A stretch of DNA of 62,940 nucleotides from Armatimonadota bacterium (lineage in GTDB: Bacteria > Armatimonadota > SYMT01), in the NCBI GenBank assembly GCA_046292385.1, contig JBKBRF010000040.1, positions 1 through 62,940 of the forward strand, given 5' to 3'. Below are positions 13,661 through 40,015 of this stretch, piece by piece. The notes below the pieces were generated by a model. The model had not been told where the DNA came from. It searched no databases and was given only the letters and a program-made list of their open reading frames with translations. How positions within the stretch are numbered: the first letter of the stretch is position 1; each line of letters starts with the position of its first letter. Both the position numbers and the translations under genes were made by a program.

Positions 13661-13930
13661 GATCTCAACGGGGGTCCACCCGCGCCCTCACCGACCGGAG
13701 CGGCCCTCCCGCGTGAGTGGCCCTCCCGCAGTCCTTTCATGCCCTTCGGGCTAGCGGACTGCTCCGGGTGTGCTCTCCGCAGTGCTGAGCTCCGCGTTCG
13801 TGGATTGCGGCTTCTTCGTTGCGGCGATGCACGGGCCGCTCCGGTCGGCTCAAGCGAGCCCCCTCGCCAGGGGGCTCACAAATGGAGCCCTCTGCCGCTG
13901 CCGGCGGCAGCGCCTCCGGGCTCCCGTGGG
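13661..13930. repeat. Structured dispersed repeat, copy 1 (subtype A)
   Basis: Helix CCGACCGGAGCGGCCC (13691-13706) / GGGCCGCTCCGGTCGG (13833-13848); shared core motifs; closely resembles the copy at 29141. Confidence 0.85.
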
Positions 13931-13975
13931 ATTATTTCTGACGGAAGCCGGTGCTGCCGCGGAGGCGGTGTGGCT

Positions 13976-15991
13976 CTAGGTGGAGGCGGCTAGCTCTTCT
14001 TCGGAGCCTTCGCTCATGAGGTAGATGCGGGGGCGGACGTCGTCCTCGGGGGTCCGCTCCCAGTGGCGGAGGAGGACTTCATAGACGCGGATGCCGGTTT
14101 CGCCTTCGCCCCAGAGGAGGTAACGGATCGCCTGGGCCACGGTGTTGCGCCGGGTGAGGCCGAGGAAGATGCTGATCGGGTCGAGGAGCTCGCTGAGGTA
14201 GGCGATGGCATTGGCGATCGCGACGGCACCGTCGACCTCGATGCAGTAGTCCTCACCGTTGCGCGAGACGCGCACGCGCAGGGCGGGGGAGAAGTCGCTG
14301 CGGTCATCGGCGAGGTTGACGTGGAGGAAGGCGAGCGGGCCGGCGATCCGGTAGTGCTCGCGAATCTCTTCTGCCTTGCGGGCGGTCGCTTCCGGGTCGA
14401 ACCGCTTGAGCGGGACCAGATTGATCTTCTTGTTCTGGATGGCGGCCCAGAGCTGTGCCGACTCCGGGCCCTCCAGCACCACCCGCTCCACGCGAAGCTC
14501 CGTGGCGCGGTGGTAGCGAGAGGCAGCGCTGAGCACGATGATCGCGGCGATAAAGAGCCCGGCGATGATGACGCCGTCCGGCCGGTGCCAGACGTTGTCT
14601 GCAATGGCGTAGATGAAGCCGGCTGTCACGAGCCAGAAGTAGAAGCTCAGGCGCCGGAGCGACGGGTTCTGCCCGCTTTCGTGCCGGAGGGCGAGGCTAA
14701 CCGCTACGGAGGCGGAGAGCATCAGCGCGAGCACGCCGGTGGCGTAGGCTCCCGCTTGCGCCTCCACTTCCGCGCGGAACGCGAGCGTAACCAGCACTTC
14801 CGCCGCGAAGAGCACCAGCACGAGCGGCCGGGCATAGGCGACCCACCGCGGCGCCATGCCGAGTCGCGGCAGGTAGCGCGGGATCAGGTTGAGCATGCCG
14901 GTGATGGCGGAGGCGCCGGCGAACCAGAGGATGAGGATCGTCGAGATGTCGTATGCGGTCCCGACTACCGGCCCCATCAGCCGGTGCGTCAGGTAGGCGA
15001 GCACGCGTCCGGACGCCTCTCCGCTGCGGTAGGCAGACTCCGGCACCAGCATGGCGGTCACCACGCTGGTGCCGATCAGCAGCACGCTCATCACGATCGC
15101 GGCCGCGGCGAGCAGCTTGCGACTGTTCCGGATCACGCCCTCCGGCTTGGGCCGGCGGCCGTCCTTGTCGTCCCCTCTCACCAGCGGCATGACGGCTACG
15201 CCGGTCTCGAAGCCGCTCAGACCGAGGGCCAGCTTGGGGAAGGCGGTGGCGGAGAGCAGCAGCAGAGCGACCGGATCGCCGGCCCGGGTGACGGCGCCGG
15301 CCCAGTGGGGGAGTGCTTCCGGGTGGGTAGCGATCTCATAAAGGCCGCGGCCGACCACCAGGAAGTTCAGCAGGATGTACGGGAGCCCCACCGCGATCGC
15401 GAGCCCGATCGCCTCGCTGAAGCCCTTGAGAAAGACGGCGGTGAGCAGAGAGATCAGGAGCAGCGTCACCCAGAGCTGCCCGCCGCCGTGGAAGTAAGGC
15501 TCCACGAGCGGGTTCTCCACGATGTGCAGCGCCGCGTCCGCCGACGAGAGGGTGACCGTGAAGATGAAGGCGGTGCTGGCGAAGCCGAGCATCACCAGGA
15601 TCACCAGCTTGCTCCGCCAGCCCCGGAGGACGCGCTCCAGCATCGCGATCGAGCCCTGCCCTACGTACGAGCGGCCGGCCACCTGGTAGTAGACCGGCAG
15701 CGCGCCGAAAAGGGTGAAGAGCACCAGTAGCGCGGTCGCGAACGGCGACAGGGCACCCGCCGCCAGGAGCGCGATGCCGGGCTGGTAGCCGAGGGTGGAG
15801 AAGTAGTCGACCCCGGTGAGCCAGAGCACCAGGTACCACGGCTTTGCGGCGTCGTGAACGTGACTGGCCTCCTCCGGCGTGCCGCCATGCCGCAGCCACG
15901 CGGTGAGGCCTCGCTCGGGCACGGGAACCTCCGGGACGCGCAGCGTAGGATCCGGGCTGGCGGAAGACGGCGCGGAGTGCGTGGAAGACAT
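13976..15991 (-). CDS. APC-superfamily amino acid transporter-like membrane protein
   Basis: LTGVDYFSTLGYQP, FPKLALGLSGFETGV; about 12 hydrophobic segments; start uncertain. Confidence 0.85.
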   Translation of the reverse strand: MSSTHSAPSSASPDPTLRVPEVPVPERGLTAWLRHGGTPEEASHVHDAAKPWYLVLWLTGVDYFSTLGYQPGIALLAAGALSPFATALLVLFTLFGALPVYYQVAGRSYVGQGSIAMLERVLRGWRSKLVILVMLGFASTAFIFTVTLSSADAALHIVENPLVEPYFHGGGQLWVTLLLISLLTAVFLKGFSEAIGLAIAVGLPYILLNFLVVGRGLYEIATHPEALPHWAGAVTRAGDPVALLLLSATAFPKLALGLSGFETGVAVMPLVRGDDKDGRRPKPEGVIRNSRKLLAAAAIVMSVLLIGTSVVTAMLVPESAYRSGEASGRVLAYLTHRLMGPVVGTAYDISTILILWFAGASAITGMLNLIPRYLPRLGMAPRWVAYARPLVLVLFAAEVLVTLAFRAEVEAQAGAYATGVLALMLSASVAVSLALRHESGQNPSLRRLSFYFWLVTAGFIYAIADNVWHRPDGVIIAGLFIAAIIVLSAASRYHRATELRVERVVLEGPESAQLWAAIQNKKINLVPLKRFDPEATARKAEEIREHYRIAGPLAFLHVNLADDRSDFSPALRVRVSRNGEDYCIEVDGAVAIANAIAYLSELLDPISIFLGLTRRNTVAQAIRYLLWGEGETGIRVYEVLLRHWERTPEDDVRPRIYLMSEGSEEELAAST

Positions 15992-16132
15992 GGCGGTGCG
16001 GGTGGTAGGCGCGCGCGGCAGGATCGCTGAGTTAAACGCTGACAACGCATCGTGGTGACGCCGAGACCGGCTTCCGGCTCTCGGGAGCCATCACCGGTCA
16101 ATACTTCTCTCTTCCTGCCGCTCCTAAAACCG

Positions 16133-16167
16133 ACGGCCGCCCCGAGGAAGCTCCTCGAGGCGGCCGT
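16133..16167 (-). terminator. Probable intrinsic terminator after the dioxygenase
   Basis: ACGGCCGCCCCGAGG..CCTCGAGGCGGCCGT hairpin followed by CGGTTTT on the minus strand. Confidence 0.55.
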
Positions 16168-16198
16168 GAGGCTCGAAACCGTGGTAATGCCGCGCGGA

Positions 16199-16855: not shown

Positions 16856-16981
16856 GGGTTTGTTCTCCGGTAGCTTCTTATCGGTTGAATGGGTTTTAGC
16901 CGCGAGTTCTCCTTCGGTACGGCTTCGGGTAGGATGGCTCCTCGCGCTCTTTCCGTTTTTCGGAGGCGTACTCTAGCTCGA

Positions 16982-17235
16982 GGGTTTCCCCCGAGCCCTT
17001 GTCTCTCGGTCCAGCCCTCCCGCGAGCAGGGCCTTCCGCTGCCCTTTCACGCTCCGCCTTCGGCTCCGCTAGCGGGCCGCTCCAGGCGTGCGCTGCGACA
17101 TGCTCTGCCCGCGTTCTGGAGCTCGATCTCACCAGCGGCCTGGTTCACGGGCTGGACCGAGAGCCTTCGAGCTGCCACCCCCCCACCGGGGGTGACCACA
17201 GGTGGCCCCCTTCGCTCCGCTGCGGTGGCCTCAGG
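16982..17235. repeat. Structured dispersed repeat, copy 2
   Basis: Helix CTCTCGGTCCAGCCC (17003-17017) / GGGCTGGACCGAGAG (17149-17163). Confidence 0.85.
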
Positions 17236-17446: not shown

Positions 17447-17737
17447 ATGGCGGAGGGGATGGGGGTGGCGGCGCCGGCGGGAGCTGGTGAGGGGAGAGCG
17501 GGGGCGGTGGGGCGGGCGGGGGGCGAGCGGAACGGGTGGTGCCGGGTCTGCGTGAGCGTCTCGCTGGTGCCGCCGAAGCCGGGGCAGTTGATCTCCGTCT
17601 CCCGGGGGCCGCTTTCGGTGCGGGTGACGGTCTGCCTGCCCCGGCTGGTGATGGCCGGGCTGTTGGTGCTGACGCTGGGGCCGCACCCCTGGTTCGGACA
17701 GGTGGTGCGCTGGGCGCGGGCGATCGGAGGGTGGTGA
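17447..17737 (+). CDS. Hypothetical small protein with C-terminal hydrophobic segment
   Basis: First ORF of the cluster; TGATG coupling to the next ORF. Confidence 0.45.
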   Translation: MAEGMGVAAPAGAGEGRAGAVGRAGGERNGWCRVCVSVSLVPPKPGQLISVSRGPLSVRVTVCLPRLVMAGLLVLTLGPHPWFGQVVRWARAIGGW

Positions 17738-18003
17738 TGGGGATCTGGCGGATCTTTGGCGGACGGATGGTCGAGCTGCTGCGGGGGAACGTGTGGGAGA
17801 TCCTGCGGACGGTGGTGACGCGCGCGGCGGCGGACGAGGTGGAAGAGGGGCTGCGGGACCAGTTCCGGGCGCTGGGACCGGAAGGCCGCGAGGAGCTGGC
17901 GGGGACGCTGGAGCGGATCGCCGCGCTGCTGCGGGCCGACCGGAGCGGGCGCGCGGCCGGCCGCGTGGCGGCGGAGCTGGTGGGGCGGCTGACGCTTCGC
18001 TGA
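17737..18003 (+). CDS. Hypothetical helical protein
   Basis: MGIWRIFGGRMVELL...; GGAGG RBS; coupled start. Confidence 0.6.
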   Translation: MGIWRIFGGRMVELLRGNVWEILRTVVTRAAADEVEEGLRDQFRALGPEGREELAGTLERIAALLRADRSGRAAGRVAAELVGRLTLR

Positions 18004-18065
18004 AAGAGGGACGGAGAGACAGCGGGACGGGGAGAGGCTGGGCTTGAGAGGCCGGCTCCTGGTCC

Positions 18066-18116
18066 CGGGCGGTTGAAACCGCGGCAAAAGCGGCACGAAG
18101 TCCTCCTTCGGGGACT
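18066..18116. repeat. REP-like element, GGGCGGTTGAAACCGCGGC family, copy 1
   Basis: Two short hairpins; same element at 22183 and 41076. Confidence 0.8.
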
Positions 18117-18137
18117 CAGGATGGTGTGGAGGGGTAG

Positions 18138-19028
18138 TTGGGTGAGGCTTCGTCGGTCCGGTTCCGGGTGGGGCATGCGGATCTGGAGCGGCTCTGCGCG
18201 CTGAACGAGTTTCGGCTGCCGGAGCGCGGCGTGGTGTTCGTGGGGGTGCGCGGCGCGCTGCCGGTAGAGGGGACGGCGACCGAGTGGGGGGAGACGCTGG
18301 AGCTGCGGAGCGCGGCGGTGGACCACCTGCATCCCCGCTGCACGGTGCTGCAGTGGAAGCCGGCGGAGCGGCGAGTGGCGGCGTTCGCGGGCTCCACGGT
18401 GCCCCACCGGCGCTACGTGGAGGCGGCGCGGCGGCGGAACGGCCGGGGCGCTAACCAGCTGATGTCGGGCTGGTTCGTGGATTACCGCCGGGGAACGCAC
18501 CGGGCGGGGACGGCGGGGGCGCACCCGGCTTTTCGGCAGACGCTGCCGCGGCCGCTGCGCCGCACCGTGAACGACCACCACTACACGGCGGCGGACCGGG
18601 TGGAGATTGCGTGCGTGGGCGACAACCTGCACGCCGCCTGGTGTGATGGGCTGGACTCCGAGTACTACGCAAGCGCCGGCTGCCAGGTGGTGGTCGGCCG
18701 CCCGCTGAGCGGTCCGTGGCGCCGGTTCCACCAGGAGGCGACGCGGGAGGCACAGGACGTCTACCCTTATCTCCTGATCCCGGGAAGCGAGCTGCGGGAG
18801 CTGGCGGCGGGTGGTCTCGCCGGAGCGGAGCGGGTGCGGTTCGGGAGCCGGGGGCCACGAACACGCCGGGTGCAGGAGGCGCTGCGCAGGCGCGGCTTCT
18901 ACCGTGGGGCGGTGGACGGCGACTTCGGGCCGCAGAGCCTGCGGGCGCTGCTGCAGTTCCAGGAGCCGCTCGACACCGGCGTGTGCGAAGCCAAAACGGC
19001 AGCGGCTCTCGGCGCGGCGTGGCCATGA
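18138..19028 (+). CDS. Peptidoglycan-binding domain protein (putative endolysin)
   Basis: C-terminal PG_binding_1-like GSRG...VQEAL..RGFYRGAVDGDFGPQS..AL..FQ; N-terminal domain with H...SAGCQV motif. Confidence 0.75.
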   Translation: MGEASSVRFRVGHADLERLCALNEFRLPERGVVFVGVRGALPVEGTATEWGETLELRSAAVDHLHPRCTVLQWKPAERRVAAFAGSTVPHRRYVEAARRRNGRGANQLMSGWFVDYRRGTHRAGTAGAHPAFRQTLPRPLRRTVNDHHYTAADRVEIACVGDNLHAAWCDGLDSEYYASAGCQVVVGRPLSGPWRRFHQEATREAQDVYPYLLIPGSELRELAAGGLAGAERVRFGSRGPRTRRVQEALRRRGFYRGAVDGDFGPQSLRALLQFQEPLDTGVCEAKTAAALGAAWP

Positions 19029-19034
19029 GGTGGA

Positions 19035-20540
19035 ATGGCTGAAGCGAAGGGGACCGGGCGCCGGCGCCGGAAGGCGGCCGGTCCGCCCACCTTTCGGGAG
19101 TTCGTACAGGCGGTGTGGCCGCGGTACCGGTGGTACCGCCACTGCGACGCGTTGGCGGCGGTGCTGCAGCGCCTCGCGGACGGCGAGGTCAAGCGGCTGA
19201 TGGTCTTTATGCCGCCGCGCCATGGGAAGAGCGAGACGGTCTCCCGCCTCTTTCCCGCCTACTACCTGCTCCGGTTCCCGGAGCGCTGGGTGGGGCTCTG
19301 CAGCTATGGCGCGGAGCTGGCGCACACGCTTTCCCGGTCCGCGAAGGACTACTACCTCCGGGGCGGCGGCCGGCTGGATCCGGGCGCGGCCGCGGCGCGG
19401 CACTGGGAGACCGGCGCGGGCGGCGGGATGTGGGCCGCCGGCGTAGGCGGACCGATCACCGGCAAGGGCTGGCACCTCGGCGTGATCGACGATCCGGTAA
19501 AGAACGCGGCCGAGGTGGGCTCGCCCCACTTCCGGGAGAAGCAGTGGGAGTGGTACGGCTCCGTCTTCTATACCCGCGAGGAGCCGGTCGGCGAGAGCGG
19601 CGATCCGGACGGAGCGCTGGTGGTGGTGCAGACGCGCTGGCATCCGGACGATCTTTCGGGGCGTCTGCTGGCGCGGGACCGGGACGAGGAGGAGCCGGAG
19701 CGCTGGCACGTGGTCTCGCTGGAAGCGCTGAAGGAAGAGACGCCGCCGGAGGTGCCGCCGCACTGCACGCTGGAGCCGGACTGGCGAGCTCCGGGAGAGG
19801 CACTCTGCCCGGAGCGCCGCCCGCGGGAGAAGCTGGAGCGGGTGCGGCGGGCGCTGGGAAGCTACGCGTGGAACGCGCTCTACCAGCAGCGTCCGCGGCC
19901 GCGCTCCGGCGGCTTCTTCAAGGTCGACCGGCTCCAGGTGGTCGCCGCGGCCCCCGCCGAGGCGGAGCGGGTGCGCTACTGGGACAAGGCCTCGACCGAG
20001 GGCGACGGCGACTACACGGCCGGAGTGCTGCTGGCGAAGGACGGGGACGGGCTCTACTACGTGGAGGACGTGGTCCGCGGCCGGTGGGGTCCGGCCGAGC
20101 GGGACCGGCGGATGCGCCAGGCGGCCGAGCGGGACGCGGCGCGGGCCGGCAGCCGGGTGCGGATCTGGGTGGAGCAGGAGCCGGGTAGCGGCGGCAAGGA
20201 GAGCGCACAGGCGAGCGTGCGGCTACTGGAGGGCTTTCCGTGCCGGACCGAGCGGGCGACCGGCGACAAGCAGAGCCGCGCGGATCCGTTCGCGGCGCAG
20301 GTGGAGGCGGGCCGGGTGCGGCTGGTGGAGGGGGCGTGGAATTCGCCCTACCGGGAGGAGCTGGCGGCGTTTCCGCTGGGGGAGCATGACGACCAGGTGG
20401 ACGCGAGCAGCGGGGCGTTCAACCGGCTGGCTGGGAGGGGGAGGCGCAGAGGGCTTGTGGGATCTGGTAGGGGTTTGGTTTGGGTAGGGGTGCCTTTCGG
20501 TCCCGGGACTCTGCCTTCCGGTGGCTTGCTGTGCTTGTAG
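19035..20540 (+). CDS. Terminase large subunit
   Basis: Walker A MPPRHGKS, GVGGPITGKG, VIDDPVKN, QTRWHPDDL, nuclease WDKAS...DYTAG and HDDQVDA. Confidence 0.95.
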   Translation: MAEAKGTGRRRRKAAGPPTFREFVQAVWPRYRWYRHCDALAAVLQRLADGEVKRLMVFMPPRHGKSETVSRLFPAYYLLRFPERWVGLCSYGAELAHTLSRSAKDYYLRGGGRLDPGAAAARHWETGAGGGMWAAGVGGPITGKGWHLGVIDDPVKNAAEVGSPHFREKQWEWYGSVFYTREEPVGESGDPDGALVVVQTRWHPDDLSGRLLARDRDEEEPERWHVVSLEALKEETPPEVPPHCTLEPDWRAPGEALCPERRPREKLERVRRALGSYAWNALYQQRPRPRSGGFFKVDRLQVVAAAPAEAERVRYWDKASTEGDGDYTAGVLLAKDGDGLYYVEDVVRGRWGPAERDRRMRQAAERDAARAGSRVRIWVEQEPGSGGKESAQASVRLLEGFPCRTERATGDKQSRADPFAAQVEAGRVRLVEGAWNSPYREELAAFPLGEHDDQVDASSGAFNRLAGRGRRRGLVGSGRGLVWVGVPFGPGTLPSGGLLCL

Positions 20541-20612
20541 GTAGAGGTCACCGTTTCGGAGATTCTCCGTGCCGTTGGCTTTCGCTTGCTTGGCGATGAA
20601 GGCTACCAGTTC

Positions 20613-20866
20613 GGGGGTTCCCCCTGCGCCCTTGTCCCTCGGACCAGCCCTCCCGCGACTTGGCCCTCCGCGGCCTTTTCACCCTCCGCTTCGCTCCGTT
20701 AGCAGGCCGCTCCGGGAGCTCACTTCGTCAGGCTCTGCCCGCGCCATTTGCGGGCGTTTGTTTCGGAGTTGGCGTTCACGGGCTGGTCCGAGGGCCTTCG
20801 AGCGACCCTCCCCCTCCGGGGAGGGTCACAGGTGAGCACCGTCGCTCCCGCTCCGGTGCTCTTGGG
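20613..20866. repeat. Structured dispersed repeat, copy 3
   Basis: Helix CCCTCGGACCAGCCC (20636-20650) / GGGCTGGTCCGAGGG (20780-20794). Confidence 0.85.
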
Positions 20867-20895
20867 TTTCTGGCTGCTCAAGTTTTGAGAGGGCT

Positions 20896-22164
20896 ATGGC
20901 TTTGATGAGTGCGGTGATGCTGGATCAGTTTGCGGCGGCGGAGCGGGAGCGGCAGGCTCGGATCGAGCGGGGGTGGCGGCGGTATCACGGGGAGTGGCCG
21001 GATCCGCTGCGGCCGACGCGGTCCGATCCGCGGGGTGAGGACAACATCCGGCTCAACTTTGCGCGGCTCATCGTGGACAAGGGGGCGGGGTTCCTCTTTC
21101 GCGGGGAGCCGCGGCTGGAAGTCGACGGCGACGGGGATGGGGAGGCGGACCGGTGGCTGGCGCGCTGCTGGGAGGCGAACCGGAAGATGACGACGCTGCA
21201 CCGCCTGGCGGTGAACGGCGGCGTTTGCGGTCACGCCTTCCTCCGGGTGCGGCGGCAGCCGGGCGCGGAGTTTCCGCGGGTGGTGGTGCCGGACCCGGCG
21301 CACGTCTCAGTGCGGTGGGAAGCGGACGACTTCGAGGAGGTGACGGCGTATCACCTCCACTGGCACGGGGTCGATCCGAAGACGGCGCGGCCGGTGGCGT
21401 TCCGGCAGGTGCTGGAGCGGGACGGCGACCGCTGGCTGATTACGGACCAGGAGAGCCGCGGGGACGACGCGGCATGGGTGGACCGGGGGCCGCCGGAGGT
21501 GTGGCCCTTTGCGTGGCCGCCGCTCTTCGGCTGCCAGAACCTCCCGTGCCCAAACGAGTGGTGGGGGCTCTCCGACCTGGAAGAGGACCTGCTGCGGATC
21601 AACCAGGCGATCAACTTCGTGGCGAGCAACGTCGCCCGCATCCTGCGGCTCCACGCGCATCCGAAGACGTGGGGAAAGGGCTTCCAGGCGAGCGAGCTGT
21701 CGATCGGGGTGGACGAGACGATCGTGCTGCCCGACCCCTCGAGCGAGCTGCAGAACCTGGAGATGAAGAGCGACCTGGCGAGCAGCCTGGAGCTGTTCCG
21801 GGAACTGCGGGGAACCCTGCACGAGTTGGCGCGCGTGCCGGAAGTGGCGACCGGCAAGGTGGAGGACCTGGGCCAGCTTTCCGGCCTGGCGCTGCAAATC
21901 CTGTACGGTCCGCTGGTGGAGCTGACGGAGACGAAGCGGCTCCTCTACGGCGAGTTGCTGCAGGAGGTGAGCCGGCGGCTGCTGGAGCTGGGCGGCTTCG
22001 GCACGAACCACCGCGTGCGGGTCTACTGGCCGGAGGTGCTCCCGCGGGACCCCCGCGGCGAGGCGGAGACGGCCCGGCTCTATGCGGAGCTGGGGGTGAG
22101 CCGGGAGACGCTGCTGGCGCGGCTCGGCTTCGATCCGGAGGCGGAGGCGCGGAGGTCGGGCTGA
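20896..22164 (+). CDS. Portal protein (SPP1 gp6-like)
   Basis: YHG, NFARLIVD...FLF, WGLSDL, SGLAL, WPEVLPRD motifs; follows TerL. Confidence 0.88.
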   Translation: MALMSAVMLDQFAAAERERQARIERGWRRYHGEWPDPLRPTRSDPRGEDNIRLNFARLIVDKGAGFLFRGEPRLEVDGDGDGEADRWLARCWEANRKMTTLHRLAVNGGVCGHAFLRVRRQPGAEFPRVVVPDPAHVSVRWEADDFEEVTAYHLHWHGVDPKTARPVAFRQVLERDGDRWLITDQESRGDDAAWVDRGPPEVWPFAWPPLFGCQNLPCPNEWWGLSDLEEDLLRINQAINFVASNVARILRLHAHPKTWGKGFQASELSIGVDETIVLPDPSSELQNLEMKSDLASSLELFRELRGTLHELARVPEVATGKVEDLGQLSGLALQILYGPLVELTETKRLLYGELLQEVSRRLLELGGFGTNHRVRVYWPEVLPRDPRGEAETARLYAELGVSRETLLARLGFDPEAEARRSG

Positions 22165-22182
22165 GTGGGAGTGGATCCACAA

Positions 22183-22234
22183 CCGGGCGGTTGAAACCGC
22201 GGCAACAACGGCACGAAGTCTCCCTGCGGAGACT
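22183..22234. repeat. REP-like element, GGGCGGTTGAAACCGCGGC family, copy 2
   Basis: CCGGGCGGTTGAAACCGCGGCAACAACGGCACGAAGTCTCCCTGCGGAGACT. Confidence 0.8.
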
Positions 22235-22252
22235 TCCGGACGAGGAGGCGGG

Positions 22253-22660
22253 ATGGACGAGGAGCAGGGGCAGGCGCAGGAGGGTCACGGCGCTCCCGAG
22301 GGTGAGCGGCGGTTCAGCCAGGCGGAGGTCGATGCGCTGCTGCGGGAGCGGGACCAGGAGCTGGAGGCGGCGCGCTCCGAGCTGGCGGCGCGGGAGCAGG
22401 AGGCGCTGCGGAGCGCGGCAGCGGCACGGCACCGGCTGCCGGCGGAGCTGGCCGGCCGGCTAGTGGGGGCGAGCGAGGCGGAGCTGGAGGCGGACGCGCA
22501 GTCGCTGGCGCGGCTGGTGAGCGCGGGCGGGCAGTCGTCGGCGGCGAACCCGCCGGGCGGACGCAGCAGCGCGCTCTCGCTGGAGGCGGTGCGGAAGATG
22601 AGCCCGGCGGAGATCAACGCGCGCTGGGAGGACGTGCGGGGGGTGCTGGCGGGGCGGTAG
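22253..22660 (+). CDS. Capsid scaffolding protein
   Basis: FSQAEVD motif, coiled coil, LP..LA.RL.G..E.EL.ADA; lies between portal and capsid. Confidence 0.8.
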   Translation: MDEEQGQAQEGHGAPEGERRFSQAEVDALLRERDQELEAARSELAAREQEALRSAAAARHRLPAELAGRLVGASEAELEADAQSLARLVSAGGQSSAANPPGGRSSALSLEAVRKMSPAEINARWEDVRGVLAGR

Positions 22661-22673
22661 CTGGATTTCGAAC

Positions 22674-22990
22674 CTGGATTCACCGCAGAGACGCGGGGAG
22701 CGCGGAGAGAACCGGAACCAGGATCCGAACCGGGCTTACCGCCAAGAACGCCAAGCTCGCCAAGAAGAATGGGCCTGGCTCGCCTCCCGGCACGGTACAG
22801 CGACCCCGGTCCGAACCAGGATTCACCGCAGAGGTCGCTGAGGGCGCAGAGGGGACGCGGAGAGGGGAGGCAGCGGGTTGGGCCTGGTTTGCTTTACGTT
22901 TGCGGTGCAGCGGCCACGGTCCGGACCTTGATTTCACCGCAGAGGTCGCTGAGGGGACGCGGAGAGGGGAACCGGAGGGGGAAGCGGAGA
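22674..22990. repeat. Cluster of short repeats (TTCACCGCAGAG x3; CGCCAAG x3)
   Basis: TTCACCGCAGAG at about 22679, 22822 and 22933 with ACGCGG.GAG tails; CGCCAAGAACGCCAAGCTCGCCAAG at 22740. Confidence 0.7.
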
Positions 22991-24014: not shown

Positions 24015-24096
24015 GTCTTCGGTCTGCGAGGGGTTGAGCCGGGTGGATTCGCACCCGCCCGGCCCAACCCCATCTGTCCGGAGCAGACTTCATCCC

Positions 24097-30010: not shown

Positions 30011-30694
30011 GTGCCGACGATCGCGACACTGCAGGCGACCCTCTCCGTGGAGGAGCAGGAGAGCGCGCGCCTGGACCGGGTGGAGCAGGTGCTGGAGCGG
30101 TTCGTCTCCCGCGCCGAGACGGTGAGCCGGCCCGCGCTGGACCGGCTGGCGCAAGGCAGCCCGGCCGGGGAGGGCGGCGAGCGGCTGGAGCGCCTGCTGG
30201 CGGCGGCGCGGGTGAGGCTGGCGCGGGCGGAGCTTTCCGCGGACCCGCTGCTCTCGCCCGTCGACCGTCGGCGCATGCTGGTGCCGGCGCTGCTGGAACA
30301 GTACCGGTCGCTGATGAGCGCCTCGCGGGGAGAGGATGAGCTGGGCCGGCTGCGCCGCCTGACCGAGGCGGCCGGGGTGAAGCGGAGCGTCTTCGAGGCG
30401 CTGGGAGCAGGCCGCGGCGGCTTCGCCCGGGTCGTGGGCGGCGGGTCGGTGGGGCTGTTCGACGGTCCCGGGCTGCGGTCCGCGGCGGCGGCGCTGGCCC
30501 GGATCGAGCGGAATGCCGCCGCTTCGGCCGCTGCGCTCCCCGGCCACCGCGGCGAAGCACGCGTCACGGTGCCGGTGACGGTGATCGGCCAGCCGGACTT
30601 CAACGATCCGCAGACGCGCCGGCGGATCCACGCGGAGATCGACCGCCGCCTGGACGAGCTGGCGCGGCAGGGTTACTCCCGGGCGAGGAGCTGA
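30011..30694 (+). CDS. Very short tape measure protein
   Basis: Canonical position after the G/GT pair; MPTIATLQATLS N-terminus; Ala/Arg/Leu helical; C-terminal VTVPVTV. Confidence 0.65.
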   Translation: MPTIATLQATLSVEEQESARLDRVEQVLERFVSRAETVSRPALDRLAQGSPAGEGGERLERLLAAARVRLARAELSADPLLSPVDRRRMLVPALLEQYRSLMSASRGEDELGRLRRLTEAAGVKRSVFEALGAGRGGFARVVGGGSVGLFDGPGLRSAAAALARIERNAAASAAALPGHRGEARVTVPVTVIGQPDFNDPQTRRRIHAEIDRRLDELARQGYSRARS

Positions 30695-31731
30695 TGGCGA
30701 CCTACCTTTCTCTCCCCGCGGACCTCCCCCCGGGCGGCACGTGGGTGGCCGGCGACTTCCATCGTCTGCGGGACGGCGCGCTCGTGACGGCGGCGCTGGC
30801 AGCGGACGGCGATCGCTGCCGCCTGCTGGTCTGCCGCTGGAGTGACGCGGAGCCGCCGGAGCCCGGCGAGGTGCAGACGGTGGAGCCGGCGGGAGTCTAC
30901 GGGGTGTCGCTGGGGAGCCCCGGCGGAGAGGTCCTGGACCTGTTCTACACGCTCCACGGCACCCGGATCTACCGCCGGGTGAGCCGTGACGGCGGTCGCA
31001 CGTGGGGGGAGCCCGCGGAGGTGCCGTGGACCCCATTTCCGTTCGTGCCGACCTACGGACCGCCGCAGCCGGGGTATCCGGCGGTCGGCACCGGCACGAC
31101 GGTCAGTTTCGCCCACGGCTATACGGCGGAAGGGCGGATCGTGCTCCTCTTTCCCCAGGAATACTTCTACCTGGTGCAGTACGTGGCTCTGTGCCTGGTG
31201 GTGGGAGAGGCGGATGAGGAAGGCGCCTGGAGTTGGAGTGAGACGTGGTTTCCAAACGCGAGCGACGGGACGACGCTGGCGCGGTGCGCCAAGCTGCAGC
31301 GGTCGCGCTGGGGCGGCATGCACGCGCTCGGCAGCAACTTCCGGCTGGACGACCTGCGCCTGGACGCGCCGCCGACGGTAGTTCGGGAGGTCGACCGCGC
31401 CAGCGATTCTCCGTCGGCGCGGGAGTGGATCGACGAGCGGCTCGGCCTGCGCGTGGCACTCAGCTCCTTCACGGTGAGCAGTACCGATCGACGGCTCACC
31501 TGGCGCTGCTATAGCCTGGAGCCGGGCGATCCGCCGATGTGGCGGGCCTCCGGGGCGACCGGCGGCTCCACAGCTCCGCTGGCGCTCGATCCGCGAGGCT
31601 TCCCGATGAAGGTGACGCAGCGGGTGGACGGAGTCTGGGAAGGGCTGGTGGTGGGACCGGGCCAGCGCCTGCGATTCGTGCGGAGCCGCCGCGTCTCCCG
31701 GACCGGCGAAGCAGCGTGGAGCATGGAGTGA
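30694..31731 (+). CDS. Putative tail tip/baseplate protein with Asp-box
   Basis: SRDGGRTW Asp-box; coupled to both neighbours. Confidence 0.6.
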   Translation: MATYLSLPADLPPGGTWVAGDFHRLRDGALVTAALAADGDRCRLLVCRWSDAEPPEPGEVQTVEPAGVYGVSLGSPGGEVLDLFYTLHGTRIYRRVSRDGGRTWGEPAEVPWTPFPFVPTYGPPQPGYPAVGTGTTVSFAHGYTAEGRIVLLFPQEYFYLVQYVALCLVVGEADEEGAWSWSETWFPNASDGTTLARCAKLQRSRWGGMHALGSNFRLDDLRLDAPPTVVREVDRASDSPSAREWIDERLGLRVALSSFTVSSTDRRLTWRCYSLEPGDPPMWRASGATGGSTAPLALDPRGFPMKVTQRVDGVWEGLVVGPGQRLRFVRSRRVSRTGEAAWSME

Positions 31732-33830
31732 TGGCAACGGGCTCGCGGCGGACGCCGCTGCTCTCGATCCGGCTCTACGACGTGGCGGAGGGCGACCCGC
31801 GCGTGGTGACGAGCGGCTTCGCCTGGTGCGACATCCTGGCGGAGAGCTGCCGCTACGGCTCCTCCGACTTCGACACGGCGGGGCGTCCGCGGCTGGAGTA
31901 CCTGCCGGAGATCGGCCTCACCTGCCGGGCGCGGCTGGCGCTGCAGGACACGCGCGCAAGCCAATACCGCGTTGCGGGCGGCGCCTGGGAAGAGCGCCGG
32001 CCGGCTCTCGGCTCGCCACGTGTGTACCGGCTGGTTCAATACGACGCCTCGCCGGGAGTGGAGTGGAGCGCCACCTCGCTGTTCGATCTTCCGGAGGATC
32101 CCGATTGTGCTGTGGAGCTGCTGCTCCCCCACCCCCCTCCGGATTGGGACGCGGCGGCGCTGCCGCCTTACGTGCAGGTGGAGTTGGGCGGCGGGGCCTG
32201 GGCGATCCGGTATGACGAGGAAGGCGGGTTCCTGCTGCGGCGGGCGGGGAGTGCCTGGCAGCTCGCCGCCGAGCTCCCGCGGCCGGCGCGGTCCGGCGGC
32301 TTCGACCCGTCGCCGGAGACGGTCGTGCTCTTCGTCCGCTGCCTGCGGGGGCAGGTCGGCGTCTCCGTGGACGGCGGCCGACGCTACACCTGGTCCGGCT
32401 ATCCGGACGGCGTGCCGGTCTCGATCCCGGCAGGCAGCGTGGCGGTGCGCGGCCGCGGGGGCGTCTCGCTCTTCGGGCTGCATCAGCTCGCCTACTCGTC
32501 CGGGGTCTACACCAGTCCGGAGCGGAACACGCTCACCGCGCGTGCCGCGGTCGTGCCGGTGCTGGAAGCGCGCTCCGACGCCCCGGGGGCGACGACGATC
32601 GGCCTCGGGGATCTCTCGACCCCGGCCGCGGGGATCGCCCGGTATGCGGTGACACTGACGCCGGAGAGCCGCGCCGCGGTGCCGTTCCCCGTGCAGCGCG
32701 CGCCGGTGGTCTATGCGGTGCAGCTCCGCTACGCCCCGGAAGTGCAGCCGGGAACCGGCGCCTACACCACCCCGTGGGACGAGCGCCTGCGCTGGTGCGA
32801 GGTGGACGAGCCGCTGGAGCTGCACGCCGGGAGCGCCGCGTGGCAGATCCGCCTGCCGCCGGGCGAGAGCTTTTCCGGCGAGTACCGGCGGCGGAAGGTC
32901 CAGATCCGCATGGGCTGGCGCGAGGACGGCGAGGAGCAGTGGTGGACCGTCTTTACCGGCTACATCGACCGGGTCCGGATCGAGGCGGACGGCTACGGCG
33001 CGAGCCGCGTCACCTTCCGAGCGGAGAACGCGACCGCCCGCTTCAAGCACAGCGAGTGGACGATGCTGGAGGCGCGCCCGCTGGGCGGGCTAACGCTGAA
33101 CGCGGCGGCCGACGCGGTGCTGGCCTCGGAGGGGCTGAACGCCTCCTACCGCCTGTGGGACGGCCTGGGCGATCGCTTCGCGCTGCCGCCGGGCTCCCCG
33201 GAAGAGCCCGCGGAGCTGCCGCGACCGGGCGAGCGGAAGTGGGAGACGCTGGAGCGGATCTTTGGCTACGCACACCTGGAGCCGTACGCGCGGCGCGACG
33301 GAACGATCTCCAGCGTGCCCCGGAGCTACTTCGGACCGGTGACGCGCAGCTACCGGGTCACCGACCCCGCCGCGGCGCAGGAGCTGATCGACTCGCTCTC
33401 GGTGGAGCTCGACTACAACCGCTGGGCGACGGCGGTGCTGGTGACCGGCCGCGGCGAGCGGGGCGGCGCGATGGTGGGGTGGGCTCGCGACGGCGCGGCG
33501 GAAGGCGGGGAAGCGTCCGCGCACTTCTGCCCGTGGCGGGAGGTGCTGCAGGAAGAGATCCCCGGCTCCACTTCCCCCGGCCTCGTCCTCTCCCGCGCGC
33601 AGGCGCTGGCGTACGACCTCTTCGGAGTGCGCAGCGAGACGGAGGTCGCGCTGCCGCTCGATCCGGGAGTGGAGCGGCGCGACGCGGTGGCGCTCTACGG
33701 CGCGGGAGCGGCCGGCTTCGCGGACGGCGCCGAGCTGGTGGTGCTGACGCTGCGGCACCGGGTCGATCTCGACCCGGAGTCCGGGCACGGCCCGGAGACG
33801 ATTGCCGGGCTGCGGCGGCTTGCTCCGTAG
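31731..33830 (+). CDS. Putative tail hub/baseplate protein
   Basis: VQIRMGW...VFTGYIDRV, KWETLERI, DPGVERRDAV motifs typical of hub proteins. Confidence 0.65.
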   Translation: MATGSRRTPLLSIRLYDVAEGDPRVVTSGFAWCDILAESCRYGSSDFDTAGRPRLEYLPEIGLTCRARLALQDTRASQYRVAGGAWEERRPALGSPRVYRLVQYDASPGVEWSATSLFDLPEDPDCAVELLLPHPPPDWDAAALPPYVQVELGGGAWAIRYDEEGGFLLRRAGSAWQLAAELPRPARSGGFDPSPETVVLFVRCLRGQVGVSVDGGRRYTWSGYPDGVPVSIPAGSVAVRGRGGVSLFGLHQLAYSSGVYTSPERNTLTARAAVVPVLEARSDAPGATTIGLGDLSTPAAGIARYAVTLTPESRAAVPFPVQRAPVVYAVQLRYAPEVQPGTGAYTTPWDERLRWCEVDEPLELHAGSAAWQIRLPPGESFSGEYRRRKVQIRMGWREDGEEQWWTVFTGYIDRVRIEADGYGASRVTFRAENATARFKHSEWTMLEARPLGGLTLNAAADAVLASEGLNASYRLWDGLGDRFALPPGSPEEPAELPRPGERKWETLERIFGYAHLEPYARRDGTISSVPRSYFGPVTRSYRVTDPAAAQELIDSLSVELDYNRWATAVLVTGRGERGGAMVGWARDGAAEGGEASAHFCPWREVLQEEIPGSTSPGLVLSRAQALAYDLFGVRSETEVALPLDPGVERRDAVALYGAGAAGFADGAELVVLTLRHRVDLDPESGHGPETIAGLRRLAP

Positions 33831-33851
33831 CCGCGGGAAGGGAGGCGAGAC

Positions 33852-34058
33852 GTGGAGAACCCGTTCGGGAGTATACAGCGGGAAGCGGTCCGCCGCGCCG
33901 GGCTGGTCGACACCTCCGCCGCCCGGGTGACCGCCGCGGGACGGCCGGAGGCGATCCAGGCGGCGGGCGGGACGGACAGCGGCGGAGGGTGGCGCGGCTA
34001 CGGGCTGCTCGGGCTGACGCGCCTGGGCGAAGGGCTGCGGGTGCGGCAGACGGGGTAG
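33852..34058 (+). CDS. Small hypothetical tail protein
   Basis: GGAGG RBS; LGLTRLG motif. Confidence 0.55.
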   Translation: MENPFGSIQREAVRRAGLVDTSAARVTAAGRPEAIQAAGGTDSGGGWRGYGLLGLTRLGEGLRVRQTG

Positions 34059-34287
34059 GAGCGGGACCGATACGAACCCTTCTCACCACGGTTGCCGATG
34101 CCGCTCCGAGCACCCGCGAGGGACGGGTGAGAGCTACTTCTCACGCGGCCTCACGCCCGGCCCCTCTCCTGCGAGGAGAGGGGAGCTATCTGTGTCAGGC
34201 CAGCCTGCTCGGGGGGATAGGCCGCGCCGGAGTGCAGAGCTATCGCCCTCTTACGTAGGCTAATCTCGGAGCAGCATGGAGATCTAG

Positions 34288-34974
34288 ATGGGCACCCCGG
34301 TGTTGGGCTTGAAGAACGACTACGCCGACCTCGACGTGGTGAGCGCCGAGGAGCTGAACCGGCGTGCGGATGCGCTGGAGGCGCGGCTTGCCAGCAGGCT
34401 GGCGAAGAGCGTGGGCGGAGGGGCGGACGTGGCCCTCTCTGCCGCGGAGGCCGAGGCGGAGGTGCTGGAGCTGACCGGCACGCTGACCGCGAACATCGCC
34501 GTGATCGTACCCGCCTGGACCGGGAAGCGGTGGCTGGTCCGGAACGGCACCACCGGCGCCTTTACGCTGACGGTGCGGACTGCCGCGGGCGCGGGAGTGA
34601 CGGTGGGCCAGGGACGGCGGGCGCTCGTCTACGGAGACGGCGCCGACGTGCTGCGGGCCACCCTCGATACCGGGAGCGACGGCAGCATGGTCGTAGGCGG
34701 GGGCGCTCCGATCGCGCAGCACCTCTCTGCCGCGACCACCTGGGACCCGCCGAGCCTGGCGGACGGAGCAGTCGCGGCAACCGTCGTCTCGGTCCCGGGC
34801 GCGGTGCCCGGAAGTATTGCTGGGGCGGGACTCAGCAGCCTGGGGGGCGCCGACGTGCTGCTCTCCGCGCATGTCTCGGCGGCCGACCAGGTGCGGGTGG
34901 TGCTGCAGAACCGGACGGGGTCGGCGCTGGACCTCGGGTCAGGGACGCTGCGGGTGGGGGTTTGGGTCTATTAG
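34288..34974 (+). CDS. Putative tail fibre / receptor-binding protein
   Basis: LTGTLTANI.VIVP...W.VRNGTTGAFTLTV; WDPPSLADG...VPGA..G; DLGSGTLRV. Confidence 0.75.
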   Translation: MGTPVLGLKNDYADLDVVSAEELNRRADALEARLASRLAKSVGGGADVALSAAEAEAEVLELTGTLTANIAVIVPAWTGKRWLVRNGTTGAFTLTVRTAAGAGVTVGQGRRALVYGDGADVLRATLDTGSDGSMVVGGGAPIAQHLSAATTWDPPSLADGAVAATVVSVPGAVPGSIAGAGLSSLGGADVLLSAHVSAADQVRVVLQNRTGSALDLGSGTLRVGVWVY

Positions 34975-35057: not shown

Positions 35058-35316
35058 CATCTCACCGGAGGTCCACCTCGTGCCCTCCCCGAACGGAGTG
35101 GCCCTCCCGCGGGGGTGGCCCTCCGCTGCTCCCCCGTTCGGGGGACAAGCCTTTCACGCTCCGCCTTCGCCCCCCGTTCGGGGGGTGAACCTCCGCTAGC
35201 GGGCTGCTACGGGCGTGCTCCCCGGTAGCCTGCGCTCCGCGTTCGTGGGCTGCGGCTTCTTCGCTGCGGCGACTCACGGGCCGGTCCGTTCGACTCAAGC
35301 GAAGACGCCTCGCCAG
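35058..35316. repeat. Structured dispersed repeat, copy 7 (subtype A, 3'-truncated, two inserted hairpins)
   Basis: Helix CGAACGGAGTGGCCC (35090-35104) / GGGCCGGTCCGTTCG (35278-35292); CCCCCGTTCGGGGG inserted twice. Confidence 0.8.
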
Positions 35317-35370
35317 ATACTGTTGGCGAAATCGGGAAGCTGCTCCGGTGCCCCGCTGGCGCGGGGCGCG

Positions 35371-35476
35371 AAAGCAAGCATTCGCACTCCACAGGCTAGC
35401 CCGGAAGAGATTCCCTCTCGCCGAGAGGGAGACTGCCTCGGTGCAGTCTGTGGAGTGCGGTGGCTTGCCACCGTTT
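35371..35476. repeat. Pair of GGAGTGCG-type REP elements
   Basis: GCAAGCATTCGCACTCCA and TGGAGTGCGGTGGCTTGCCACCG; same family as the REPs next to the transposase at 62053-62191. Confidence 0.7.
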
Positions 35477-35696
35477 CCCCGCCAGGGAATCTCGCCGGAG
35501 TGCTTGGCCGCCGGTGATCCTCCTGCCCCGCTGGTTTCGCCAATCCAATCTCGCCAGGGGGGGCACAGAGGGAACTCTCCGTTGCTGCCTGCGGCAATAC
35601 CTCCGCGCTCGTTGAGTTTGGCTGCCGCACCTCGAGTGGAGGCGGCCTTCGGCCAAGAGCCAAACTCCTACCCCCCATTCCCCCACTCAGTCCGTT

Positions 35697-37927: not shown

Positions 37928-38842
37928 TCAGGCGCCGGCGCGGGCTGCCTCTTTCTGGCAGGCCGGGCAGAGCGGCCGTCCGAAGGCGCGCACGCTCATG
38001 TTGTGCTGGCCTTTGGTCAGCGCTTTGCCGCAGCCCGCCGCGCTGCAGTTCATCGCCTCCGGAGTGTCCGCGGAAGCGTCTCCGCGCGCGGCGGCGCGAT
38101 CCCCGCTCGACTCGGGAGCGGGACGCTCCGCGCGCGCCGCGCCCGCGGCGCCGGCGGTCCAGATAGAGCGCTTCTCGCCCTCCGCGTCCGGTGCCGGAGC
38201 CGCGGGCGCGGTGGGTGCAGCGGCGGCCGGAGCCGGCGCGGGACGGCTCGCCTTCCGCTCCTCGGCGGCCTCGTCCGTCACGGGCGGAGCGGGCGGGCGG
38301 GGAGCCGGCGGACGGGACGCGACGCTGGTCGGTCGCTCGCCAGAGCGCTCCGCGGGGCGGGCGTCCAGGGCCTGGGGCCGGCTCGCCACGCCGCAGATCG
38401 CCAGGGCGCGCTCGATGGCGGCCGGCGAGATGCGCGGCCGCTCCGTAAATTGCCGCCGCTGGGAATCGAACGGCGCCCAGACCTTCGGCAGGTAGTAGAG
38501 ATACCGCCCGATGCCGAAGTGGACCGCGCACCGCTTCAGCGCGTCCGACACCGCCGACTTGAGCACCTCATCTTCCGTCGAGGCCTCGCCGGCATCGCAC
38601 TTGGTCACCCCGCAGACCGTGAGCTTCCCCTTTACGAACTTGCCGTCCGGCGCCACCAGCTCGAAGTCGTAGCTCCAGTTTCCGGGCCCCACCACGGCAT
38701 CGAGCCGCCGCATCACGTCTCGCGCGTCGATGTACGGCAGGCCGAGCGCCTTTCCGCCCGAGGTGGCGCGGGGGAGAAAGTCGATCTCGTCTTCCGGGAA
38801 CGGCGCGCCGAGCGCCTCCATCACTTCTCTCGTGAGCTCCAT
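37928..38842 (-). CDS. Rad52/Rad22 family single-strand annealing protein with C-terminal zinc ribbon
   Basis: PYIDARDVMRRLD.VVG..NW, KSAVSDALKRCAV.FGIGRYLY; C-terminal C...C...RPLCPACQ. Confidence 0.9.
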   Translation of the reverse strand: MELTREVMEALGAPFPEDEIDFLPRATSGGKALGLPYIDARDVMRRLDAVVGPGNWSYDFELVAPDGKFVKGKLTVCGVTKCDAGEASTEDEVLKSAVSDALKRCAVHFGIGRYLYYLPKVWAPFDSQRRQFTERPRISPAAIERALAICGVASRPQALDARPAERSGERPTSVASRPPAPRPPAPPVTDEAAEERKASRPAPAPAAAAPTAPAAPAPDAEGEKRSIWTAGAAGAARAERPAPESSGDRAAARGDASADTPEAMNCSAAGCGKALTKGQHNMSVRAFGRPLCPACQKEAARAGA

Positions 38843-38900
38843 GTCATCTCTCCTCAATCCAAGTCCCGTGTTCGCACGAGAAGCTCCGGTTTACGCGAAC

Positions 38901-38929
38901 AGTATACCAAACAGATGTTCCCCTATCAA
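38901..38929 (-). promoter_or_regulatory. Sigma70 promoter with a LexA (SOS) box between -35 and -10
   Basis: Minus strand reads TTGATA-17 nt-TATACT; the spacer contains GAACATCTGTTT (GAAC-N4-GTTY, 38909-38920). Confidence 0.8.
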
Positions 38930-39112
38930 CGCCGGCTCACCTGCGCCGGGGGAGAATCTCTTTCGCTCCCACCGCCGGCGAGCCGGCGCCGGGGTTACCC
39001 GGAGCGCGTGGGGCGGAGTCGGTGGTCGTCCCGGCTGATCAGAAATGAAGATAGAATCTCTCCGAGCCGAGCAGAGCCAGGAATCTCGCCTGGACGCCGG
39101 GAAGTTAACACT

Positions 39113-39637
39113 ATGAAACCGAGACTCCTCGTCCCCATGGCTGCCGCCCTGCTGTCTCTGGCCGCAGCCTCCACTGTCGTCGGCGCCGCCGCGGAAAAGG
39201 GCAAGTGCGCCGTCTCCGGTAAGGAGATCGAGATCACCGAGAAGACCCCGCGGAGCAGTATCCAGGGGAAGGCGGTCTACTTCTGCTGTGAGAACTGCCC
39301 CAAGGCGTTCGCCAAGACCCCGGAGAAGTTCGTCAAAGGTGATCTCGGCAAGTGCCCGGTGCAGAACAGCGACATCGAGGCGGCCGACGCCGGTCTGCGC
39401 CGCGTGATCAACAACGGCGTCTGGTATGTCTGCTGCCCCGGCTGCGCGGACGGCCTCGCCAACTCCCCGGCGGTGTTGAAGTCGCTGAACGACGTCGTCT
39501 CCAACAAGACGTTCACGGCGACCGCCAGCAGCCCGAAGATGGAGTACAAGGGCCAGCTCTACCTGTTCCAGAACGCCGAGACGAAGTCCCAGTTCGAGAA
39601 GGATCCGGCGAAGTACGCCCTGGTCTTCACGAAGTAA
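39113..39637 (+). CDS. Secreted YHS-domain protein
   Basis: Signal peptide; GKAVYFCCENC..F...PEKF; EYKGQLYLF.....K.QF..DPAKY. Confidence 0.8.
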   Translation: MKPRLLVPMAAALLSLAAASTVVGAAAEKGKCAVSGKEIEITEKTPRSSIQGKAVYFCCENCPKAFAKTPEKFVKGDLGKCPVQNSDIEAADAGLRRVINNGVWYVCCPGCADGLANSPAVLKSLNDVVSNKTFTATASSPKMEYKGQLYLFQNAETKSQFEKDPAKYALVFTK

Positions 39638-39655
39638 GTCTCTCCTGACGTGCCG

Positions 39656-39685
39656 GAGGGGGAGCAGCTTCGGCTGCTCCCCCTC
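39656..39685. terminator. Strong hairpin after the YHS gene
   Basis: GAGGGGGAGCAGC-TTCG-GCTGCTCCCCCTC; no clear U tract. Confidence 0.55.
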
Positions 39686-39769
39686 TGCGCGTTCAACGGG
39701 GCGCGCAGCGCTAGCCGCTCCTCACGCGCGCCTCGGTGTTCCTCCCGAAGAGCCGCGTCGAGAACGTCC

Positions 39770-40015
39770 TCCCGACCCCGCGCCCTAGTCGGCCGCTCCA
39801 GCCCTCCCGCGATGAAGTGCCCTCCGCGGCCTTTTCACGCTCCGGCTTCGCCTCCGCTAGCAGGCCGCTCCGGGAGTGCGCTCCGTTTAGCTCTTCCCGC
39901 GCCGCAAACGGGATCTCACCATTCGCTCGGTTCACGGGCTGAATCGCCCGCCGTCGAGCGACGACCCCTGCGCCCAGGGGTCGTCACAAGGGGCGTCCAT
40001 GGGACGCCGCAGGTT
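39770..40015. repeat. Structured dispersed repeat, copy 8
   Basis: Core motifs GCCCTCCCGCG, TTTCACGC, GCTAGC, TTCACGGGC, TCGAGCG, CACAAGG; long helix partly degenerate (39790-39804 / 39936-39950). Confidence 0.8.

Follow-up and report, generated by a model that had tools for sequence, protein, structure and literature searches.

What are the eight related repeats that lie between positions 13,661 and 40,015 of contig JBKBRF010000040.1 of an Armatimonadota bacterium (assembly GCA_046292385.1), and in which form do they act? The contig (C40), analysed here over its whole length of 62,940 nucleotides and called the window below, belongs to a 7.04-Mb draft genome (G000) of 91 contigs with 69% G+C, rated 98% complete. 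Our analysis reads the repeats as members of a lineage-restricted, non-coding, non-autonomous mobile element family with about 140 copies in the genome, a reading whose chances we regard as even. Its separate parts, namely which strand folds, whether the family is mobile and whether the folded strand acts as DNA or as RNA, differ in strength and are weighed in turn.

A repeat search of the window recovered the eight sites as overlapping repeat families. An nhmmer profile built from these eight copies gave 140 genome-wide matches, and a covariance model gave 143. We aligned 127 near-full copies from the whole genome with MAFFT, and clustering divided them into subfamily A (69 copies), subfamily B (55 copies) and three outliers. 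All eight window copies have their core fold on the minus strand. Subfamily A (cluster 3) includes copy 2 (16975-17202; covariance model score 211.5 bits), copy 3 (20608-20832; 197.2 bits), which lies between terminase and portal genes, copy 4 (24092-24335; 200.7 bits), copy 5 (27744-27975; 205.5 bits) and copy 8 (39762-39990; 202.5 bits). Subfamily B (cluster 2) includes copy 1 (13665-13882; 175.2 bits), whose tail hairpin reaches to about 13930, copy 6 (29147-29367; 177.7 bits) and copy 7 (35062-35338; 77.5 bits), which carries two small palindrome inserts at 35131 and 35171. For six of the eight window copies the nearest relative is found on another contig, so that the window holds mostly separate insertions. 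A search of Rfam gave no family match, neither at the gathering threshold nor at E-values up to 1, and returned only a tRNA and chance-level matches.

The minus (G-rich) strand is predicted to fold over about 230-280 nt into a structure of several helices, in which a 15-bp long-range helix closes a branched core and some conserved stretches stay unpaired. In an alignment of 43 matches from four genomes and two metagenome contigs, fitted to the covariance model, 93.9% of the cells were paired and 34 of the 50 pairs change on both sides. This level was reached by none of 500 shuffles, while slid partners gave 41-49%, and the independent MAFFT alignment yielded the same helices. The strand can be read from the wobble pairs. 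Over all predicted pairs of the 127 copies, A.C on the plus strand, which is G.U on the minus strand, was found 625 times versus 270 times for G.T. At G:C pairs, departures from the subfamily consensus were G>A in 172 cases versus C>T in 68 (50 versus 25, with 49 ties, when counted per pair and subfamily), and the same two changes were about equally frequent in the unpaired columns that served as control (5.9% and 5.0%). Furthermore, a five-pair helix holds a minus-strand U.G beside a covarying pair in 126 of the 127 copies, and in 42 of the 43 sequences of the model alignment. Because of these three results, the A.C excess, the G>A excess with its flat control and the near-invariant U.G, we hold with considerable confidence that the folded strand is the minus strand of the window. 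The initial annotation had read the central hairpin on that strand, and its choice is supported.

This asymmetry also bears on the explanation that the copies work in double-stranded form, by binding proteins or forming cruciforms as has been proposed for REP and BIME. The copies are intergenic and numerous, and they form inverted heterotypic doublets like those described for BIMEs (PMC2817692). Yet a double-stranded role predicts no difference between the strands, where we see 172 versus 68 changes against a flat control and one helix that exists on one strand only. We therefore consider a double-stranded role very improbable.

The loops of this fold follow a simple rule. The initial annotation had listed triloops for seven central hairpins read on the minus strand, and all were found as written: gccc-GAA-gggc in copy 1 (13734-13754), gcc-GAA-ggc in copy 2 (17044-17072), gc-GAA-gc in copy 3 (20676-20702), ggc-GGA-gcc in copy 4 (24161-24189), gcc-GCA-ggc in copy 5 (27814-27850), gccc-GCA-gggc in copy 6 (29217-29237) and ggc-GAA-gcc in copy 8 (39832-39860). 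The GGA/GGA internal loop that it had described for several copies is present in copies 2, 3, 4 and 8, and in 75 copies genome-wide; copy 5 has GGA/GCA at this place. In copy 7 the central region (35151-35199) holds a hairpin broken by a small palindrome insert.

Among the 127 aligned copies, 116 have both motifs that anchor the central hairpin and 11 do not. A perfect stem with a GNA triloop closed by C-G on the minus strand was found in 115 of the 116, with GAA in 60, GCA in 44, GGA in 11 and GTA in none. The stems are GC (42 copies, which thus read exactly GC-GNA-GC on a 2-bp stem), GGC (38), GCCC (20), GCC (10) and GCGCC (5). Since five differing stems share one loop rule, the loop was held while the stem varied. 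The count of GNA loops exceeds chance, and because the copies are kin it does not represent as many independent events. The tail hairpin, which could be tallied in 113 of the 127 copies (the other 14 gave no hairpin there), has a similar design, with GNA in 65 of the 113 (GGA 30, GCA 18, GAA 10, GTA 7) and C-G closure in 94. Two modules per element thus share one plan of a stem, a GGA/GGA internal loop, a second stem and a c(GNA)g triloop. Judged by their letters, 115 of 116 central and 65 of 113 tail hairpins have the features of DNA mini-hairpins of the GCGNAGC type. The remaining two hairpins have mixed loops, and no GNRA or UNCG rule, as would be typical of RNA, was found on either strand. 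We also considered a UNCG tetraloop on the plus strand as the source of the pattern. It needs C-T-N-C-G-G, which is missing from 80 of the 115 stems (those with GC or GGC), and this candidate was rejected.

Does the folded strand act as DNA or as RNA? A 2026 review (PMC13037366) describes mini-hairpins of the GCGNAGC type as extraordinarily stable in DNA and their RNA counterparts as considerably less so, and it lists such hairpins from ssiA, the origin of phage G4 and the single-stranded promoters of phage N4. In the proposed comparison of DNA and RNA folding energies on both strands, the energies did not separate the two chemistries. Among 20 of the 127 copies, each compared with 8 shuffles, the minus strand was lower in energy in all 20. 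This is mostly an effect of composition, and the gain over the shuffles differed by -2.9 kcal/mol for RNA and -0.3 kcal/mol for DNA. Copy 3, for example, had z-scores of -3.6 (DNA, minus), -4.75 (DNA, plus), -5.56 (RNA, minus) and -4.13 (RNA, plus). Both strands, modelled either as DNA or as RNA, gave better folds than shuffled sequences.

Other results help with this question. In the 98%-complete genome, no reverse transcriptase domain and no TnpB domain were found, and in 19.2 kb scanned beside the copies we found a single sigma-70-like minus-strand promoter. Our preference for single-stranded DNA rests on the GCGNAGC-type mini-hairpins, on the fact that RNA-type tetraloops, consistent promoters and a reverse transcriptase are all missing, and on the ends of the long forms, which have neither terminal inverted repeats nor target duplications. 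On these grounds the folded strand would be single-stranded DNA with somewhat better than even chances, and RNA with a lower, still sizeable probability. The initial annotation had proposed folded minus-strand single-stranded DNA, for instance as substrate of an HUH enzyme or as reverse-transcribed DNA. The strand and the GNA/GGA design fit this proposal, but no reverse transcriptase and no linked Y1 gene accompany it.

An alternative explanation might be that the folded form is a minus-strand RNA needed for the element's own movement, either as a guide-like or bridge-like RNA for a recombinase acting in trans or as a template for retro-mobility. The non-coding ends of IS110 elements can encode a bridge RNA. 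This genome has IS110-family genes, and a non-autonomous IS110 derivative in it keeps the non-coding end. A branched fold with strong covariation, a near-invariant U.G with tolerance of wobble pairs, and conserved unpaired stretches would all suit such an RNA, and selection at the level of multiplying lineages, discussed below, fits it as well. However, neither a reverse transcriptase nor TnpB was found, there are no promoter-like sites beside the copies and no Rfam match, and the ends of the family are unrelated to those of the IS110 copy on contig C6. Moreover, the GNA triloops that 42 copies carry on a 2-bp stem are described as much weaker in RNA (PMC13037366). We consider this explanation unlikely.

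The arrangement of the copies gives a second line of evidence. The uniform orientation mentioned in the initial annotation proved to be local: all eight window copies point the same way, whereas 66 of the genome-wide matches are on the plus strand and 74 on the minus strand. Relative to their flanking genes, single copies fell into the four orientation classes as 22, 19, 19 and 15 (6 at contig ends), as judged from crude, GC3-based gene calls, where GC3 is the G+C content of third codon positions. No rule ties the orientation of a copy to its neighbouring genes. Of 135 copies, 12 fall inside a called gene.

Close pairs are ordered much more strictly. They are head-to-head in 28 of 29 cases, so oriented that the folded strands meet with their 5' ends, and in 24 of 25 pairs one partner belongs to A and the other to B; identity between partners is 0.64 versus an average of 0.69. 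Copies are often joined in this way into composite units of 400-800 bp with end modules of their own. An alignment of twelve doublets covers about 835 bp with the spacer and both end modules, and shows no inverted termini and no target duplication, a result that holds for the long forms with clear ends only. Shorter units of about 400 bp have the same end modules around a lone B core, and the end modules occur almost only beside cores. The left flanks of the units differ; they are mostly pyrimidine-rich, with no fixed motif.

Several composite units (on contigs C8, C10, C16, C18 and C30) abut tracts of a CTGTG-like 7-base repeat, and both unit ends contain CTGT. As a candidate target, these heptamer tracts were rejected: 6 of 140 elements lie within 300 nt of one, compared with 22 of 3000 random windows, which are mostly coding, and the enrichment is weak.

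The variation among the copies suggests when the fold is needed. Variation shared among copies keeps the structure and is strand-biased. This is unlike the private mutations, defined heuristically as substitutions found in one or two copies, which occurred at 0.55 per column in paired and 0.49 in unpaired positions. Of the private changes in pairs, 12 of 60 stay Watson-Crick and 48 do not, and the two wobble types were seen 12 versus 10 times. Because the shared variation keeps the structure and the private mutations look neutral, the fold appears to matter when the element multiplies and not where it resides. A derived change is also shared between copies on different contigs: copy 7 and a copy on contig C46 have the same palindrome insert at the same place in the central hairpin. 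Copy 7 holds a 14-nt perfect palindrome at 35131-35144 and again at 35171-35184, of which the genome has 19 exact copies.

That the family is a selfish mobile element seems to us likely. In the mechanism that we propose, the fold would be required when the element multiplies, and selection would act on those lineages that multiply, not on every copy in residence; an enzyme acting in trans would take the folded single strand as its substrate, and this strand would more probably be DNA than RNA. More specifically, the element may multiply as a large (250-800 nt) folded single-stranded DNA made of mini-hairpin modules, and would then be a new kind of mobile DNA in bacteria. The enzyme that handles it would not be one of the known partners, as neither a cognate HUH gene nor TnpB nor a reverse transcriptase is linked to the family. 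We put this last, composite proposal forward tentatively and regard it as rather doubtful.

The neutral appearance of the private mutations is of importance for another explanation, which takes every copy for a host locus, either the gene or a cis element of a structured non-coding RNA such as a small RNA, a leader or an element of a 3' untranslated region. Covariation and conserved junction nucleotides would be in line with this, as would the mostly intergenic position of the copies (12 of 135 inside gene calls) and the presence of the family in three further genera. On the other hand, a host RNA does not readily explain some 140 copies with orientations unrelated to neighbouring genes, private mutations that hit paired and unpaired positions alike and mostly break pairs, or the lack of promoters and of RNA-type tetraloops. 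In addition, six of the window copies are antisense to a phage-type operon. A role as host RNA is thus improbable.

A mechanism linked to replication had been suggested as the cause of the uniform orientation. We compared the orientation of single copies with the GC skew over 40 kb on each side, with the elements masked and |z| at least 2. The C-rich strand of single copies tends to lie on the G-rich genome strand (two-by-two counts of 18 and 3, and 9 and 17; p 0.0009). The same table without the window contig (10 and 3, and 9 and 17) gave p 0.019, and stricter cuts were not significant. With a weak genome skew and several thresholds tried, the link with replication is suggestive only. It would place the folded strand on the C-rich genome strand, opposite to elements of the IS608 type, which use the lagging-strand template. 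Gene-strand bias, as a second proxy for the direction of replication, was inconsistent between window sizes.

In a further explanation, the copies would be host signals that act as folded single-stranded DNA at each locus, for example as ssi-like entry sites for primase or a primosome. Mini-hairpins of the present type are found in the G4 origin, ssiA and the N4 promoters, according to the review cited above (PMC13037366), and the association with GC skew (p 0.0009, or p 0.019 without the window contig) would fit as well. Several results are at odds with such a role: the orientations are near equal genome-wide, the link with skew is lost at stricter cuts, this link would put the folded strand on the C-rich genome strand and not on the lagging-strand template, the private mutations look neutral, and the doublets hold both orientations side by side. 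We regard host signals of this kind as quite improbable, even more so than a host RNA.

Which enzyme could move the element? The initial annotation had pointed to the RAYT gene at 62260 as a partner, and this did not hold. The gene (62260-62790, plus strand; IS200-like and RAYT-like) is a weak match to the Pfam domain Y1_Tnp (E 4.7e-07). The nearest family copy ends at 40030 on the same contig, and the flanks of the gene hold other repeats. It has a paralogue on contig C83, and two IS200-type genes, on C51 and C22, are likewise not flanked by the family. A search for a Y2 transposase of the IS91 type gave no match here, and since the control genomes gave none either, this negative carries no weight. 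Upstream of the Y1-like gene, at 62044-62200, a motif of about 21 nt that the genome repeats 6-16 times is present as an inverted pair, which may be the REP-like partner of that gene.

The IS110-family elements mentioned above have left clear traces in and around the repeats. The tail of copy 7 has an insert (35316-35543, with no strand assigned) in which the left end of an IS110-family insertion sequence is joined to the right end and the gene is missing. In BLAST comparisons its pieces match the two flanks of an IS110-type gene on contig C6 with 90.5% and 95.9% identity, where a full IS110 copy lies at about 73.8-75.4 kb. This derivative has about 45-56 copies. It is located at the ends of many contigs and borders the Y1-like gene of C83 on either side (9.4-10.4 kb), and at least two more family copies (C1, C23) have it in their tail region. 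The window contig itself ends inside such an element, which starts after the Y1-like gene (62830-62940).

The family extends beyond this genome. The covariance model gave 14, 8 and 2 matches in three other genera of the same family and none in three further genomes. Of the genomes with matches, one (G005) has four head-to-head doublets and two tandem pairs, and another (G006) keeps GC-GGA-GC and GC-GTA-GC hairpins with GGA flanks. Scans for exact motifs gave one match in genome contigs, which the model did not confirm, and three in metagenome contigs, of which two were confirmed; these were not enough for a comparison of empty sites. The copies of G005 lie beside CRISPR-Cas and metabolic genes, and a link of the family to phage genes was therefore ruled out. 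On contig C3 of G005 (822-842 kb), a gap of 2.7 kb separates a Cas6e-type gene from cas1 of a type I-E-like system and holds two copies, and two more are found between cas2 and a WD40 gene.

The systems most similar to this family are the REP, BIME and REPIN repeats with their RAYTs and the derivatives of IS200/IS605. Like the family, REP systems have more than 100 extragenic, hairpin-forming copies, with single copies beside doublets, and the Y and Z types of BIMEs and the arms of REPINs are two unit types in inverted order, as in the A/B doublets. Recognition as a single strand and targeting by IS110-type insertions have been proposed or described for REP as well (PMC2817692, PMC3116915, PMC1525189). 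Yet a REP unit is an imperfect palindrome of 20-40 nt, whereas the present unit is branched and 230-280 nt long. A consistent tag comparable to the conserved GTAG/CGTC of REP is missing: in the 16 nt that precede the first hairpin, CGTC occurs in 43 of 124 copies (25 of 69 in A, 18 of 55 in B) and GTAG or CTAC in 5. In REP systems the RAYT is flanked by its own repeat, which is true of none of the five Y1 genes here.

Derivatives of IS200/IS605 share with the long forms the absence of terminal inverted repeats and of target duplication, and with the doublet consensus the hairpins near both ends. The single-strand mechanism of IS200/IS605 is tied to replication (PMC6006769). In contrast to these elements, the family has no fixed tetra- or pentanucleotide at its left flank and no TnpB, and in its doublets the folded strand of one arm lies on the DNA strand opposite to that of the other. 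No autonomous relative with the same ends and a tnpA (and tnpB) gene was found in this 91-contig assembly, in which a collapsed copy is possible.

Initiation signals such as the G4 origin, ssiA of RSF1010 and the N4 early promoters are also strand-specific folded single-stranded DNA, from tens to a few hundred nucleotides long. Their mini-hairpins are of the form GCGNAGC or CCGAAGG, and the loops are GAA or GGA (PMC13037366). These signals are single sites of phages or plasmids, whereas the family has about 140 chromosomal copies in both orientations, and its resident copies show no sign of constraint. The single-strand origins (sso) of rolling-circle plasmids are another strand-specific folded signal of this kind.

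The bcr1 repeat of the Bacillus cereus group is intergenic, lineage-restricted and longer than 100 nt, with a predicted fold, the traits of a mobile element and a target duplication. The present family differs in its unrelated sequence, its GC-rich branched fold, its GNA loop rule and the lack of a visible target duplication. Integron attC sites, which are imperfect palindromes of 57-141 nt that lie in one orientation between the cassettes of an array beside an integrase, were considered and rejected: the family units are about 270 nt long and dispersed over both strands, and the genes between the window copies are phage head and tail genes; an integron integrase was not searched for. Tentatively, then, the family might be a new form of structured, non-autonomous dispersed element, with REP/BIME/REPIN and the IS200/IS605 derivatives as the nearest known kinds.

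Several points weigh against the reading of the family as a mobile element that multiplies as folded single-stranded DNA. No enzyme is linked to it, and in the genome's five Y1 matches the 900-nt flanks hold other repeats or none, and no family copy. Its movement follows from copy number, dispersal and shared derived inserts only, as neither an empty site nor an insertion polymorphism was seen, and genome-wide no pair of end modules encloses a gene. The folding energies favour neither chemistry, and a 230-nt branched fold with conserved unpaired stretches and a near-invariant U.G resembles a structured RNA more than any known single-stranded DNA transposon end. In G005 the central loop is not a GNA closed by C-G. 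Three limits apply to the data as well: the covariation alignment had been fitted to the structure of the model, the test of private mutations comprises a small sample of 60 and 67 substitutions under a heuristic definition, and the gene calls behind the orientation test are crude.

Some features near the window copies belong to the context, not to the element. Copies 3 to 6 lie in intergenic regions of a cluster of phage-type head and tail genes (17447-34974, plus strand), with Pfam matches to terminase, an SPP1-type portal, capsid, head completion and tail completion proteins. The cluster has a very high GC skew, up to 0.157, compared with a genome mean of |0.012|. A search of 200 other genomes of the phylum found relatives of the portal (at most 53% identity) in 10, including 6 among the 8 genomes of one other family and none in its own family. 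A search for an empty site by way of this gene was negative: the relatives, at most 53% identical and from other families, had no terminase match within their 1.5-kb flanks, and one viral contig was found. Further downstream, a frame for a Rad52/22-family annealing protein (37928-38857, minus strand) overlaps a long frame with YHS/TRASH metal-binding domains (38003-39637, plus strand), and over the overlap at most one of the two can be real.

How most bacterial dispersed hairpin repeats multiply is unsettled, and the present family is unusually informative in this respect. Its unit is large enough to reveal which strand folds, it follows the loop rule of stable DNA mini-hairpins, and the comparison of shared with private variation separates what is needed to multiply from what is needed at the site of a copy. 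Should the folded form be DNA, no larger structured single-stranded DNA substrate would be on record for a chromosomal repeat, and an unknown enzyme would be implied. Should it be RNA, the family would represent a structured RNA not described so far, carried by a mobile element.

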